A stretch of 64,000 nucleotides of DNA from Candidatus Micrarchaeia archaeon. GTDB taxonomy: Archaea; Micrarchaeota; Micrarchaeia; Burarchaeales; JAVZCV01. Under the pieces are notes generated by a model. It was not told the origin of the DNA, did not search any database, and saw only the letters and a list, made by a program, of their open reading frames with translations. This document shows positions 40,889 to 47,488 of this stretch, in pieces. Position 1 is the first letter of the stretch, and each line of letters opens with the position of its first letter. Made by a program: the position numbers and the translations under genes. The DNA lies in NCBI GenBank assembly GCA_038874215.1, contig JAVZCV010000002.1, forward strand, positions 53,624 through 117,623, read 5' to 3'.

Positions 40889-41797
40889 TTGAAGAAAACA
40901 TGTCCTGAATGCGGTGGAGATAAGCTAACGCGCGACTATGTGCGTGGCGAGCTCATATGCACTAATTGTGGTTTAGTGGTAGAGGAGGATATAGCTGACC
41001 AAGGTCCAGAGTGGCGTGCTTTTGATGCAGAGCAACGAGATACTCGCGCACGCGGCGGTGCTCCTATTAATTATATGAGACCGAACAAGGGCCTTGTTAC
41101 AGAAATAGACAAATACAACCGAGATATAAGGGGAGCCCGAATATCATCGGGTAAAAAGGAGCAGATGTACAGGCTTAGAAAATGGCACAAGAGGGCGAGC
41201 ATAGCCACTTCCATGGAGCGAAACCTTGCGATAGCGCTCAGCGAGCTCAGCCGCATGGCATCATATTTGGGCTTGGCGGAGGAGATAAGAGAATCCGCAG
41301 CGCTTCTTTACAGAAACTGCGTGAAGAAAGGGCTTGTTAAGGGCAGAACGATAGAGGTTGTAGTCGCAGCCGTCATATATATAATATGCAGAAAAAGAGG
41401 AGTGCCAAGAACGCTCAACGAGATATCAAAGATTGCGGGAATAGAGAAGAAGGAGATAGGGAGGGCATACCGCTACATTGTTCGGGAGCTTGACGTTGAT
41501 GTTCCGCTTGCAGACCCAACAAAACACATACCGAAGTTCGCCTCAATACTACGCCTTTCTGGCAAGGCTCAGGAAGAAGCACTTGAGATTTTGAAAAAGG
41601 CATCAAAGAAAGGACTCATTTCCGGAAGAGGCCCGACAGGGCTTGCCGCCGCAGCGATATACATAGCGAGCGTTATGACCGGAGAGCGAAGGACACAAAA
41701 AGAAGTTGCACGGGCAGCGGGCGTTACAGAAGTGACTATAAGGAATAGGTACAGGGAATTAAAGAAAGCCCTTAACCTTGATGTTGACCTCGTTTAG
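40889..41797 (+). CDS. tfb: Transcription initiation factor IIB
   Basis: CPECG..CTNCG zinc ribbon, GPEWRAF B-reader, two cyclin repeats, VTEVTIRNRY. Confidence 0.98.
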   Translation: MKKTCPECGGDKLTRDYVRGELICTNCGLVVEEDIADQGPEWRAFDAEQRDTRARGGAPINYMRPNKGLVTEIDKYNRDIRGARISSGKKEQMYRLRKWHKRASIATSMERNLAIALSELSRMASYLGLAEEIRESAALLYRNCVKKGLVKGRTIEVVVAAVIYIICRKRGVPRTLNEISKIAGIEKKEIGRAYRYIVRELDVDVPLADPTKHIPKFASILRLSGKAQEEALEILKKASKKGLISGRGPTGLAAAAIYIASVMTGERRTQKEVARAAGVTEVTIRNRYRELKKALNLDVDLV

Positions 41798-41837: not shown

Positions 41838-44567
41838 GTGGGGGGCATCTTGCGCGTTTTTCTCTCTGCCTTTCTGTTGTCTATACTCGCCTGCATGACA
41901 TTTGGCTACACTCTGGAATACAACTCATCAAAAATAATCCGTGAAAATGGCTTATGGCTTGACTGCAAGCCTACGGCAGTCTCATATTCATGCTATATAG
42001 ACCATGCAACGAAGATATTCACAAGCACCGTTTCTTGTAGCTATGACTCAGAAAACGATGTTTATCTTGTTGGCAGAGAGCAAAAGCACTCCTTCAATCT
42101 TATCGCAAGAGAGCTTCTATCCGATATAAATCTTGAAATATCCTATATAGCCCACTCATGCGGTAGGCTTATTCTCTCCCTTAACAATTGCAACACAACG
42201 GTTGATACGATAGGCTTAGGCTGCCCGATCGTCATGAAAAGCATCTATTTCAGCCGTTCTTGCATAAAAAACGGCACGAATACCCTATCGTTTATTGCAG
42301 ATGACTGCCCCATCTGGATATCCCTTGGGAAAGGAACGTGTCCGTCTGGTTGCGGACCGTTTTTCGCGAGAATGTACACGAACTATACGCGCCTTCAAAA
42401 ACCAGAGAAGAAGAGCGCAGAGGGAAGCTGGATTGCATCCGAAAAGGCATGGAACTTTGCCATTTCATGTGATAATGAGGAGATAAGCGCATTTTTACCA
42501 CCAGATGCGAGCAATTTAGAAGTTGTTAATGAGACTGGTAGCATTGCCTTCACTGTTGATAAGGGAGTTGCAAAATTCCACTGTGTTAAAAATGTCCTGA
42601 TCTCATTTTCACAGCCAGAATTAACCCTTCATATTGAAACTCTTGATGAACGGCGCAACAACTCCTATTCCCCAGGAGAGAATGCAACAGTACGCATTTC
42701 GTCATTTCTTGCCAATATGCCCGCACAAGCGAGCATAAAATACGAAAATTCAGAGTGCACGGACAATCCATGCATATTCAAAATTCCTATCACAACACCA
42801 CTCGGTTTGAGAACCCTCGTTTTCTTTGCAGACGATGGAAATGGCCACATAGGGCATGGGAACATAACTCTTGCCGTTGAGAATGCATCGTTTTCTATAA
42901 TAGAAACGGTTAACGGAACAAAGGTCTCAAACCTTTTCATCATAAACAACACGATGAGCAGGGATTTCTCCGAAGAAATATCCTTTGCGTTGCCCTCAGA
43001 TTACCGCGGCAATCTACGGGTTTTAAACGAGAAGGGGCTTGAGATAGATTCTACACAAGGCAACGGGCGTGCGCTCTTCTACGGTTTTTGCCCCTCACGC
43101 TCAACATGTTCCTACTCTGTTGTTTTTGATGTCGCAGGTTCTATAATCTTCTTCAAACAGCCTCGCTTGAATGCAGAATATATTGAGGTAGGCAAACCCA
43201 CACCTCTGGTTATAGATGTTTTATTAGAAAGCGAAAACGCTGTTCGCACAATAACGGCAACCGTTGAGAATAAAACATGGGACATAAATTCAATCGTTTC
43301 TCTCCTTCCATTAGAAAAGAAGAACATCACTTTTGAGAGGCCCACTGTTCTCGCACATATTGGTGGTGAGAAAAAGGAATTGTTTGGTAGCACATTCACA
43401 TACGAAATCGCTGCTGACTTCTCAGAGCTCATACAAATACTATCTGCAGAAGTAAGGGCCGTTATAGAAAAAAGCAAGCTTGAAGGTTGGAATTACCGTC
43501 AAAACGTGCGGGCTCGTTTTGATTTTCACGATGCGCTTTGGGCAGAAAACTCAACGCACGTAATCCTATACGCGAGCAATACGGAAAAGGGAAGACATAC
43601 CTTCACCCTTCTCTATGATTCATCATCAATGCAGCAACCACCAACCCAACCCACTAAACAAGAGAATAAGCAAGAACAGGATAAAGCTGAAACCAACAGG
43701 CCCACCTCTCATTCTGACGATGGCGGGCTTCAGAATGCTTCGGATGCGGAGTGCGTAGACCTGAACGTATGCGCTGCATACTGGAATGTTTGTAATTCGG
43801 GAGAAAGCGAAAGCAACCGCCAGTATAGCAACGAGAGCTTACAAATTAACGAGAAGAAAGAGGACGCTTTAAGTCACTACGAGACCGAAAAACCCGCAAG
43901 AATCTCAATATTCGCCCCACAAAATACGGAGAAGGGGAATGTTGAGATACTCGTGCTCAAAAACAGCCTCCCAGCAGAAGGAAGCGTTCTTATAAAATCC
44001 CCATCGGGAAGAGAATTCGTGATGAAACTATCCCGTGGTGCTACATCCCTATTCTTTGATGAACCAGGAACTTGGGTTGTATCATATATGGGAACCGAGA
44101 GAACTATAAACATAGGCGCAGAAAGTAGCACAAAAAACCCCACCAGCATCCCGACAATAAATCCAAAGAAAATTGACAGCATGTTAGAATTTTTGGGGGA
44201 AGTCCTCCCATTCTTTCTTGTACTAACCTTTCTCCCCATTCTATTTGTTCTCTTTTTGCTCGTATCCCGATATGTCTTTGCACCCAATCTTCATGCTCGC
44301 ATAGAGCCAGAAGGAATAAAAATAAGAGGAAAAGGCGAACTCTACGATGTTAACATAAGCCTTCTCTTTCCAAGCAATGCCAAAATAAATGCGGAAAATG
44401 CGAGCATCTCCGATACGATTTTCGGAAAAATGGTGAAATGGAGAGTCCCCGTTTTAAAGGGTTCCGAAAGTTCTCTCTTCCGCTTCAGCTCTGACGAGAA
44501 GCCCATAAGAGTGAATATAACTGGGAAGATGCGCTCTGGAAAGGAGGTCAATGTGGAGATGACGTAG
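41838..44567 (+). CDS. Large secreted/membrane-anchored hypothetical protein
   Basis: Signal peptide, many N-x-S/T sequons, beta-rich domains, low-complexity linker, TM near aa 790 followed by a ~100-aa tail. Confidence 0.7.
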   Translation: MGGILRVFLSAFLLSILACMTFGYTLEYNSSKIIRENGLWLDCKPTAVSYSCYIDHATKIFTSTVSCSYDSENDVYLVGREQKHSFNLIARELLSDINLEISYIAHSCGRLILSLNNCNTTVDTIGLGCPIVMKSIYFSRSCIKNGTNTLSFIADDCPIWISLGKGTCPSGCGPFFARMYTNYTRLQKPEKKSAEGSWIASEKAWNFAISCDNEEISAFLPPDASNLEVVNETGSIAFTVDKGVAKFHCVKNVLISFSQPELTLHIETLDERRNNSYSPGENATVRISSFLANMPAQASIKYENSECTDNPCIFKIPITTPLGLRTLVFFADDGNGHIGHGNITLAVENASFSIIETVNGTKVSNLFIINNTMSRDFSEEISFALPSDYRGNLRVLNEKGLEIDSTQGNGRALFYGFCPSRSTCSYSVVFDVAGSIIFFKQPRLNAEYIEVGKPTPLVIDVLLESENAVRTITATVENKTWDINSIVSLLPLEKKNITFERPTVLAHIGGEKKELFGSTFTYEIAADFSELIQILSAEVRAVIEKSKLEGWNYRQNVRARFDFHDALWAENSTHVILYASNTEKGRHTFTLLYDSSSMQQPPTQPTKQENKQEQDKAETNRPTSHSDDGGLQNASDAECVDLNVCAAYWNVCNSGESESNRQYSNESLQINEKKEDALSHYETEKPARISIFAPQNTEKGNVEILVLKNSLPAEGSVLIKSPSGREFVMKLSRGATSLFFDEPGTWVVSYMGTERTINIGAESSTKNPTSIPTINPKKIDSMLEFLGEVLPFFLVLTFLPILFVLFLLVSRYVFAPNLHARIEPEGIKIRGKGELYDVNISLLFPSNAKINAENASISDTIFGKMVKWRVPVLKGSESSLFRFSSDEKPIRVNITGKMRSGKEVNVEMT

Positions 44568-45890: not shown

Positions 45891-46228
45891 TACCCCACAT
45901 ATTTCCCCACAATTCTAAGCACTTCCTCTATTTCAGATTGACTTAGAACATACCTCTCTTTTGCGAATATGGCATTAACCTGCTCAGCATTCCTCGGCAA
46001 GACATCAACTATCTTCACTGCCGCATCATCACTCATACGCTCAAGCGCTTTTAGTTCGTTAAACAACTGCTCCCTTTTCTCCTTTTCAAGTTTTGTGAAT
46101 TTTTTTGCATATTCCAGAGTCGTTTGTTGCTCAAACCCAAGCTCTCCTTCCTTTTCCCTCTCGCCCAATATCTCAGCAACGGTTCCAAGCGAAACAGGTT
46201 TTATCTTTATCATCTCCTTGCCTATCAT
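45890..46228 (-). CDS. rpoF: RNA polymerase subunit Rpo4 (F)
   Basis: EQQTTLEYAKKF, AVKIVDVLP; gene context. Confidence 0.92.
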   Translation of the reverse strand: MIGKEMIKIKPVSLGTVAEILGEREKEGELGFEQQTTLEYAKKFTKLEKEKREQLFNELKALERMSDDAAVKIVDVLPRNAEQVNAIFAKERYVLSQSEIEEVLRIVGKYVG

Positions 46229-46503
46229 TTTGCCCACCTTTCAAGATGCATTGGGGAAACAACGAGTTTTTTTTCCTTTCCACAATCACGCACACTTACA
46301 ATATATGCTCTACCGCTCTTCCCAACAATCCTGCCCGTTCTCCCTCTATACCGTGGATGCGGAGACCCAGAATAGCCCGCCTTTATATCTATATGCACAA
46401 CCTCCCCTATTTCAAACTTCTTACCAACATAACTTGAAGAGAGTCTTACGCTCTTGAGCAACTTGCTTCTCTTTGACATCTTGCCTCTGCTTCTCCTTAC
46501 CAT
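46225..46503 (-). CDS. rpl21e: 50S ribosomal protein eL21
   Basis: GEVVHIDI, PHPRYRGRTG, V.PMHL. Confidence 0.95.
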   Translation of the reverse strand: MVRRSRGKMSKRSKLLKSVRLSSSYVGKKFEIGEVVHIDIKAGYSGSPHPRYRGRTGRIVGKSGRAYIVSVRDCGKEKKLVVSPMHLERWAK

Positions 46504-46605
46504 GAAACCACCATAAAAGAAAGCTATATACTTTTAGAGTATTCCTTTATATAGGTTCCGTATCATAAGCCATATATATAAATCATCTCTCTGGGGTGGT
46601 ATCGG

Positions 46606-46893
46606 ATGGCCAAGGTCCGCAAGCGCATAAAGCCGGTTTTTAAGATTGAGAATATAGTTGCTTCTGCTAATTTTGGCGTTGAGCTTGACCTGTATGCTAT
46701 AGCTATGAAAGTGAAAGATGTTGAATACGAGCCCGAGCAGTTCCCAGGCGCCATTTTGAAACTAAGAGAACCACGTGCATCCCTTTTGCTATTCAAAAAC
46801 GGAAAAATAATATGCACTGGTTCTAAGAGCGAAGCCGAAGTAAAAAGAGCTCTGGAGAAGGCGATAGAACTACTTGAGCCCCACTGCAAGTAG
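46606..46893 (+). CDS. tbp: Single-repeat TATA-binding protein (half TBP)
   Basis: IENIVAS, LDL, YEPEQFPG, LLFKNGKIICTG; one repeat of 95 aa, then a stop. Confidence 0.88.
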   Translation: MAKVRKRIKPVFKIENIVASANFGVELDLYAIAMKVKDVEYEPEQFPGAILKLREPRASLLLFKNGKIICTGSKSEAEVKRALEKAIELLEPHCK

Positions 46894-46937
46894 CAAAGCG
46901 CCAAAAATATAAATTTTTTTCATCCCAAATATTAAAA

Positions 46938-47054
46938 CGGTCAGCGGCCATAGGGGCGGGGAAACACCCGATCTCTTCCCGAACTCGGAAGTAAAGCCCG
47001 CCTACGATGTTGCCTGTACTGCCGTCTGGCGGGAAGGCGCATTGCTGCTGGCCG
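46938..47054 (+). rRNA. rrf: 5S rRNA (stand-alone)
   Basis: GCGGCCATAG..ACACCCGATCTCTTCCCGAACTCGGAAGTAAAGCCC..GTACTG..GGGAA; terminal helix CGGTCAGCGGC/GCTGCTGGCCG; TATA-like AAATATAAAT upstream. Confidence 0.95.
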
Positions 47055-47064
47055 TTAATTTCTA

Positions 47065-47430
47065 CTATAACTCTGCAACTGCTTCTATCTCAACAACCGC
47101 GCCTTTTGGAAGCGAAGCCACACCCACTGTTGCGCGTGCGGGCTTATTCCTAAAATGCCTCTCATAAACAGTATTCATCTTTGCAAAATCAGACATATTC
47201 GTAAGGTACACTGTTGTTTTGACTACCTTGTCCAACGAAGAACCAGCGGCTTTAAGAATGGTGCTTATATTGCTTATCGCATTTTCAGTCTGCTCCTCAA
47301 TGCCATCCCCTAATTCGCCGTTAGCGTCAACCCCTATCTGCCCAGAAACGAAGACGAGGTCATGTGAAATCACCGCATGGGAGTATGGTCCGATAGCTTT
47401 CGGCGCACCTTCTGATGAAACATTTTTCAT
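47065..47430 (-). CDS. ridA: RidA/YjgF family imine deaminase
   Basis: APKAIGPYS, SGQI, PARATV..LPK..VEIE. Confidence 0.95.
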   Translation of the reverse strand: MKNVSSEGAPKAIGPYSHAVISHDLVFVSGQIGVDANGELGDGIEEQTENAISNISTILKAAGSSLDKVVKTTVYLTNMSDFAKMNTVYERHFRNKPARATVGVASLPKGAVVEIEAVAEL

Positions 47431-47488
47431 AAAACCACCGAAGGCACTTCACATCAAAAATTAATAATATGCCTCTGTTATTACATGC

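Follow-up and report, generated by a model that had tools for sequence, protein, structure and literature searches.

Background

TBP is the textbook example of a pseudo-symmetric protein and is thought to have descended from a homodimer. We know of no described organism that runs on a TBP with one repeat only. The canonical archaeal TBPs (2Z8U, 1MP9, and 1PCZ/1AIS) contain two repeats in the same chain, each of which makes up one lobe of the saddle. Proteins with a lone TBP domain and a length of about 82-136 residues have been reported from Halobacterium (TbpA) and from the Thermococcales by Brindefalk 2013 (PMC3597702). According to that paper, these lone domains all coexist with full-length TBPs, and the group from the Thermococcales has strongly diverged. 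In searches of open full text, outside subscription journals and supplements, we met no paper in which an archaeon, Micrarchaeota included, has a single-repeat TBP and no other. The papers on DPANN archaea that we consulted mention TBP just as 'present'.

Here, we analysed a stretch of 64,000 nucleotides (the window) from a Micrarchaeota archaeon (DPANN) that encodes a TBP of 95 residues. In family and in modelled fold this protein resembles the canonical archaeal TBPs, with 43-45% identity over 77-83 columns and an rmsd of 0.8-1.3 Å between one canonical lobe and the model of the window TBP. The DNA-facing and stirrup motifs, TFB, and a TATA-like box are common to both. However, canonical TBP has two repeats and the window TBP has one, so that two separate chains would be needed for a saddle, which would then be exactly symmetric. 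It can also be set apart, by description, from the lone domains of Brindefalk 2013: those coexist with a full TBP, whereas the window TBP lies in the TBP slot, is close to the canonical sequences, and is the sole one found.

The single-repeat TBP gene and its surroundings

The features of the locus, together with the TFB gene of the window, are given in Table 1. PF00352 matches the 95-aa protein once (E 6.7e-30, 103.2 bits compared to a cut-off of 22.9), and the match spans residues 12-91, which correspond to profile positions 2-83 of 85. This is far beyond chance expectation, and the one full TBP repeat that had been read from the ORF in the first-pass annotation is thus present as claimed. 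The protein does not contain the two tandem repeats of canonical TBP. All ten NCBIfam TBP models (PRK00394) match over half their length, with 62-94 bits compared to cut-offs of 181-347.

Table 1. Positions of the TBP gene, its neighbours, and TFB in the window
Feature	Position	Strand	Description
TFB, full-length	40889..41797	+	302 aa; PF00382 twice, E 1.2e-25 and 2.2e-20
L21e gene	46225..46503	-	ORF, label from sequence; divergent neighbour of TBP
AT-rich TATA-like box atatatataaat	46572..46583	+	-34..-23 from the ATG; putative TBP promoter
Single-repeat TBP gene	46606..46893	+	Intact 95-aa ORF, ATG to TAG; PF00352 match
TBP protein layout			Basic N-terminal tail, residues 1-11; one TBP repeat, residues 12-91
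5S rRNA gene	46940..47053	+	RF00001, 73.5 bits, E 1.1e-14; starts 46 nt past the TBP stop

The motifs that had drawn attention to the ORF (ENIVAS, EQF, LLF, and YEPE) were all found and can be aligned to both canonical repeats. ENIVAS (residues 15-20), YEPEQFPG (41-48, containing EQF), and LLLF (60-63) align residue for residue with both repeats of the archaeal TBPs 2z8u, 1mp9, and 1ais. They comprise what we take to be the DNA-contacting Asn, the intercalating Phe residues, and the stirrup, labels that are carried over from TBP structures. The residues that match the canonical underside and stirrup set (the strand 1 Asn, two Phe, YEPEQFPG, and the TG of strand 5) are identical in both repeats of 2z8u and 1mp9. 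Among 64 single-repeat relatives, E15, I17-S20, and all of Y41-I50 are invariant, and N16 is nearly so. The protein is also not conspicuously closer to one of the canonical repeats than to the other. Compared to the 95-aa protein, the two repeats of Methanocaldococcus (M.) jannaschii TBP score near-equally with 73.1 and 76.1 bits, those of S. acidocaldarius TBP score 70.5 and 67.7 bits, and those of P. woesei TBP score 58.2 and 73.0 bits.

Upstream of the gene, a TATA-like tract and an RBS had been proposed. The tract is present, and so is the GGTGG at 46595-46599, but the role of the latter as an RBS is doubtful. Genome-wide, AT-only hexamers peak sharply at -30 to -26 from the ATG, with 738 hexamers in this 5-nt bin compared to roughly 150-460 elsewhere, as counted in 595 upstream regions that derive from crude gene calls (ATG-start ORFs of at least 90 aa). 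Because this distance of the AT box points to mostly leaderless mRNAs, which are probably the rule in this organism, the GGTGG is perhaps not used as RBS and may instead be located upstream of, or at the extreme 5' end of, a leaderless mRNA.

Downstream of the TAG, the next in-frame stop follows after 13 codons. Because the 5S rRNA gene immediately follows, there is no space for a second repeat 3' of TBP, and the earlier statement that a frameshifted second half is absent holds for the locus as well as for the genome, in which a second repeat was not found either (see below). A 5S match within a few kb of TBP is present in 18 of the 101 tabulated loci, the window's own (L001) included; near two-repeat TBP loci, blastn (E ≤ 1e-3, 101 loci tabulated) gave none.

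The TBP gene is part of a conserved block, KsgA-DUF655-RpoF-L21e <> TBP, in which TBP is located divergently beside L21e (the labels of KsgA, DUF655, RpoF, and L21e are our reading of the sequences and not family matches). According to tblastn synteny, L21e adjoins TBP in 55 of 61 single-repeat loci and in 32 of 35 complete two-repeat loci, and the loci without L21e beside TBP are mostly extra paralogues or have short flanks. Because both forms adjoin L21e, the single-repeat gene takes the genomic place that the normal TBP gene has elsewhere. Its substitution rates indicate purifying selection. The dN of the window TBP to its nearest relatives is 0.16-0.21 with dS being saturated, and the median dN/dS is 0.18 with a maximum of 0.52 (300 of 2016 pairs with dS of 0.05-1.5 in a set of 64 ORFs that includes two contig-truncated two-repeat genes; these are rough Nei-Gojobori estimates). 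The dN/dS check that had been suggested at first pass thus revealed a conserved gene with saturated synonymous sites.

Given that a two-repeat gene is found at the same locus in other Micrarchaeota, the window gene could be regarded as a truncated pseudogene, or as the product of a frameshift or of the assembly process. However, the ORF is intact and evolves under the purifying selection just described, the same architecture is found in 62 loci with a conserved placement of the stop (0-9 residues past the TBP domain in the 62 single-repeat ORFs), and there is no remnant of a second repeat in front of the nearby 5S rRNA gene. In addition, the region 46200-47100 is contained as a whole on a 6121-nt contig of a separate assembly of a public hot-spring run, with one difference and zero indels; this run may be the window's own source sample and the assembly is therefore not independent. 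The difference is a C>T at 46689 in a third codon position, which by reading is synonymous (GAC -> GAT). The probability of a decayed or artificial gene is therefore practically negligible. Among the public runs, no RNA run is listed with the TBP stretch, which is carried by one DNA run only.

TBP genes in the genome, the order, and the class

The search for further TBP genes covered all stop-to-stop ORFs of the genome (1.13 Mb, 38 contigs, 91% complete). A two-repeat TBP, for which the genome was to be checked according to the first-pass annotation, was not found, and there is one credible TBP-domain match. A second TBP repeat was not found in this 91%-complete genome by Pfam, by tblastn, or by a sensitive profile, for which single-repeat relatives with a length of up to 135 aa were selected out of 120 proteins and which was run with --max, i.e. 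with all filters off. The next-best hits are a Pfam match inside a 513-aa membrane ORF (E 0.26), a tblastn match (E 0.58), and a match of the sensitive profile in an apparent RibD-type ORF (E 0.026). In some relatives there are TBP-like ORFs of about 100-114 aa that have strongly diverged and match weakly (L098:4250-4564, L099:4302-4643, and L100:3927-4223; Pfam E 7e-11 to 6.5e-4). A sequence search for a counterpart of these divergent paralogues in the window's genome found none.

In the window's order, 27 of the 28 sampled genomes contain TBP domains, and every match is located in a frame of at most 145 aa; the sole genome without TBP is 73% complete. There is one match in 18 genomes, two in six, and three in three, always at separate places. 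The extra match is weak (21.5-42.4 bits) in three of the genomes with two matches. Two or three strong, separate single-repeat TBP genes are found in six of the 28. Because the genomes with a single match include one that is 98% complete (6 contigs) and one that is 100% complete, the single TBP repeat is not due to incompleteness. Across the class, a TBP match was found in 196 of 201 genomes, each at least 85% complete and one of them (G087) flagged as unpublished; none of our conclusions depends on G087. Several families of the class have single repeats, and others have two-repeat frames of about 190-220 aa. One family regularly shows two TBP matches, which are separate one-repeat frames wherever the match list shows them. 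Among 80 named loci there are 46 single-repeat ORFs, 32 two-repeat ORFs, and 2 two-repeat ORFs cut by a contig end. The possibility raised earlier that relatives have a full TBP at this locus is thus true for distant relatives in other orders of the class. It does not indicate a recent truncation or misassembly, because the single-repeat form is common to the whole order and to several other families.

The protein could still assist, or compete with, a canonical two-repeat TBP missing from the assembly, comparable to TbpA of Halobacterium and the proteins of the Thermococcales. The published lone TBP-domain proteins (PMC3597702) all coexist with full-length TBPs. In the window's genome and in the 27 genomes of the order with matches, however, no full-length TBP or two-repeat TBP frame was seen with which the protein could coexist (0 of 27). 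Furthermore, the gene holds the slot of the main TBP, and the protein is about as close to the canonical repeats as those are to each other, whereas the proteins of the Thermococcales have diverged. We therefore regard an auxiliary role as very improbable.

Alternatively, the window TBP could be half of a heterodimeric TBP, if the single-repeat gene of the partner were located in the roughly 9% of the genome that are unassembled. The six genomes of the order with two or three strong separate genes, three more with a weak extra match, the family with two regular matches, and the completeness of 91% would all be compatible with this. However, the second copy was not found by any of the three methods, 18 of the 28 genomes have one match only, the 98% and 100% complete ones among them, the divergent paralogues of the relatives have no counterpart in the window's genome, and the homodimer model passed its controls (see below). 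A heterodimer in this organism is thus unlikely. In those Micrarchaeota that have multiple single-repeat TBP genes, unlike the window's genome, heterodimers are possible. Two or three separate single-repeat TBP genes were seen, for example, in one complete genome (CP058998.1, loci L019 and L045) and at L027:3958-5563, where two of the genes are 1.2 kb apart.

Evolution of the repeat number

The two-repeat TBPs of the Micrarchaeota (e.g. L031 and L095-L097) share the slot beside L21e with the window TBP but consist of two fused repeats, and in the trees their N and C repeats fall together with the single repeats, apart from the corresponding repeats of other TBPs. Their halves are unusually similar, with 62-78% identity (35 proteins) compared to 24-53% in a set of 75 diverse two-repeat TBPs (170-210 aa) in which a single protein stands out with 63%, and each of their repeats is about 65-66% identical to the window TBP. 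In a FastTree analysis of 274 repeats, the N and C repeats of the other TBPs form largely separate clusters, and the Micrarchaeota repeats of all three kinds (single, N, and C) are united in one clade (support 0.657, or 0.921 once three outgroup N repeats are counted in). This clade lies inside neither the N-repeat nor the C-repeat cluster of the other TBPs. Within it, 32 of the 35 N repeats and 32 of the 35 C repeats sort into largely separate sister clades (support 0.81) that are nested among the single-repeat lineages. For a subset of 74 rows, a quick search gave the Micrarchaeota clade an SH-aLRT of 88, and a careful search gave it UFBoot 71 / SH-aLRT 84.

A tree in which the Micrarchaeota N repeats are forced to join the other N repeats, and the Micrarchaeota C repeats those of the other TBPs, is worse by 54.3 lnL (p-AU 0.040, p-KH 0.063, p-SH 0.089, with explicit constraints, fast searches, and groups that were named after the first tree had been seen). 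An earlier AU test of the same grouping gave a p-AU of 0.184, measured against a free quick tree that was itself suboptimal by 23.6 lnL. With this borderline AU support, the repeat trees suggest that the two-repeat TBPs of the Micrarchaeota arose by re-duplication. The repeat-level phylogeny, which had been proposed as a check, places the Micrarchaeota repeats together. As to which of the canonical repeats survived, trees constrained to an N-derived, a C-derived, or a pre-duplication origin are 14-38 lnL apart, and on about 100 columns none is rejected (p-AU 0.11-0.43).

A tree of four neighbouring genes (621 columns, 87 loci, FastTree, midpoint root) contains 47 single-repeat loci, including the window's, in one clade (0.954) and 34 two-repeat loci in another, with five single-repeat loci as its sister group (0.922). 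Nested in the two-repeat clade is a further single-repeat locus, L055:3844-4276, the sister of L095 with a support of 1.0. Its repeat groups with the N repeats, and it looks like a case of secondary loss of the second repeat. Concerning the history as a whole, we lean slightly towards a scenario in which one repeat was lost at an early stage of the phylum, a re-duplication took place in one main lineage, and one or more later losses followed. Gene conversion between the repeats or a different root are possible alternatives to loss and re-duplication.

It could also be imagined that the single-repeat TBP is a direct descendant of the homodimeric ancestor from before the duplication and has never been fused. 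In that case, the canonical duplication and fusion would have been repeated in the two-repeat TBPs of the phylum, independently and at a later time. Because the two-repeat TBP is, to our knowledge, universal otherwise, a secondary loss is far more likely, and we give a never-fused origin very little probability.

Structural models

The AlphaFold2 model of the monomer (pLDDT 87.3, pTM 0.73) consists of a strand, a helix, four strands, and a long helix. A fold search gave 44 PDB matches with E ≤ 0.001, every one of them a TBP chain that is matched over one lobe, or about half of the target. Compared to the PDB TBP chains, the model has a TMq of 0.73-0.83 and a TMt of mostly 0.40-0.46. The 95-aa protein is thus predicted to have the TBP (helix-grip) fold of one lobe.

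Modelled in two copies, the protein obtained a score of 0.54 (runs 0.54, 0.55, and 0.51), compared to 0.02 for the best of three controls. The mark for a homodimer model is reached by 20 of 30 known one-chain pairs and by 1 of 23 known single chains, and this calibration applies only roughly here because our own alignment was used as input. At least 90% of the contacts agree between the runs, and the pLDDT of the partner is at least 83. The modelled interface is two-fold symmetric, with residues 9-22 running antiparallel, residue 17 facing residue 17, and with contributions of residues 69-70 and the helix 76-87. The lobes of canonical TBP meet in like manner through their first strands. The pass of the homodimer model may therefore stem from the model's memory of the canonical pseudo-dimer, and it speaks of likeness and not of binding. 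In the first-pass annotation, a symmetric homodimer had been deduced and the modelling of a complex of homodimer, DNA, and TFB had been proposed. The homodimer part of this complex is the model reported here, which passed its controls. Dimerisation is inferred, and so are the binding and bending of TATA DNA, the recruitment of TFB, and a role in initiation, for which the TFB genes and the TATA-like boxes at -30 to -26 give indirect support.

Proposed role in transcription initiation

The full-length TFB of the window has two cyclin repeats and a Cys-rich N-terminus that, as read from the sequence, resembles a zinc ribbon. A second full TFB gene is located on contig C23. Directly downstream of the TFB gene of the window there is an ORF of 909 aa (41838-44567) with a hydrophobic N-terminus, rich in Cys, Asn, and Ser, which could encode a surface protein.

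Single copies of the TBP fold are described for RNase HIII and DNA glycosylases (PMC3597702), and the function of the 95-aa protein is read here from sequence and model. It could therefore function without a partner chain, or in a process other than initiation, for example by binding nucleic acids, with initiation proceeding without the classical TBP saddle. However, the positions that correspond to the DNA-facing and TFB-facing motifs of canonical TBP vary little or not at all among the 64 relatives, the genome has canonical TFB genes as well as TATA-like boxes at the distance to be expected, and the predicted interface is the invariant first strand, which a monomer would leave exposed. A role of this kind is very unlikely.

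We estimate a probability of about 75% that the 95-aa protein is the general TBP of the cell and acts as a symmetric homodimer, with TFB and BRE setting the direction. The first-pass annotation had not decided between a main factor, an alternative factor, and a competitor. The role as main factor is favoured because it is the sole TBP gene found, lies in the L21e/TBP slot, is conserved, and gave a passing homodimer model. In the proposed mechanism, two identical chains would pair via their first β-strands and second helices and would thereby rebuild the ten-stranded saddle that is otherwise made by the two covalently linked repeats of canonical TBP. The symmetric dimer would bind a near-palindromic A/T box about 26-30 bp upstream of the start sites, an ordinary asymmetric TFB would bind one of the two identical stirrups, and by reading the BRE on one side it would fix the direction of transcription. 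In archaea, according to PMC7289017, it is TFB reading the BRE, and not TBP, that orients the initiation complex. Because TFB and BRE set the direction, a symmetric TBP is workable in principle.

It had also been suggested that the symmetry would suit the short divergent promoters. The layout of the genome does fit: gaps between divergent gene pairs cluster at 48-59 nt (25 of 175 pairs, genome-wide), and many of the short gaps, e.g. 47431-47488, hold one central near-palindromic TTTAAA- or TTTATAAA-like box, which suggests that they are shared bidirectional promoters. However, this is not specific for a symmetric factor, as BRE-TATA-BRE promoters with about 49-50 nt between the start sites are also reported in PMC6640164 for Pyrococcus furiosus, which has a canonical TBP. 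A crude PWM of the box, aTTTWtAaAw (109 of 594 sites, compiled without a control genome), has a correlation of 0.906 with its own reverse complement. The palindromic TATA box was nevertheless rejected as support for a symmetric factor, because P. furiosus has the same and because motifs made of A and T only score high by nature. Among the tRNAs of the whole assembly, only 16 are listed with a full 70-nt upstream flank. On contig C6, at about 39441 (+), ARAGORN called a 'tRNA-Stop', which could be a false call or a suppressor-like tRNA.

Conclusions

A whole lineage of the Micrarchaeota appears to run on a one-repeat TBP. Its sister lineages seem to have returned to a fused pair of repeats, of which one appears to have been lost once more in at least one case. 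For annotation, this means that curated models of full-length TBP put single-repeat genes below their cut-offs. Some source records label single-repeat TBPs as 'hypothetical protein', and several nearby hits of 140-150 aa are labelled 'partial'. For the biology of transcription, these organisms would offer a natural test of whether covalent linkage and asymmetry of the lobes are needed in TATA binding, bending, and the recruitment of TFB, of how the direction of a promoter is set with a perfectly symmetric factor, and of the course that duplication and fusion take in a core factor.
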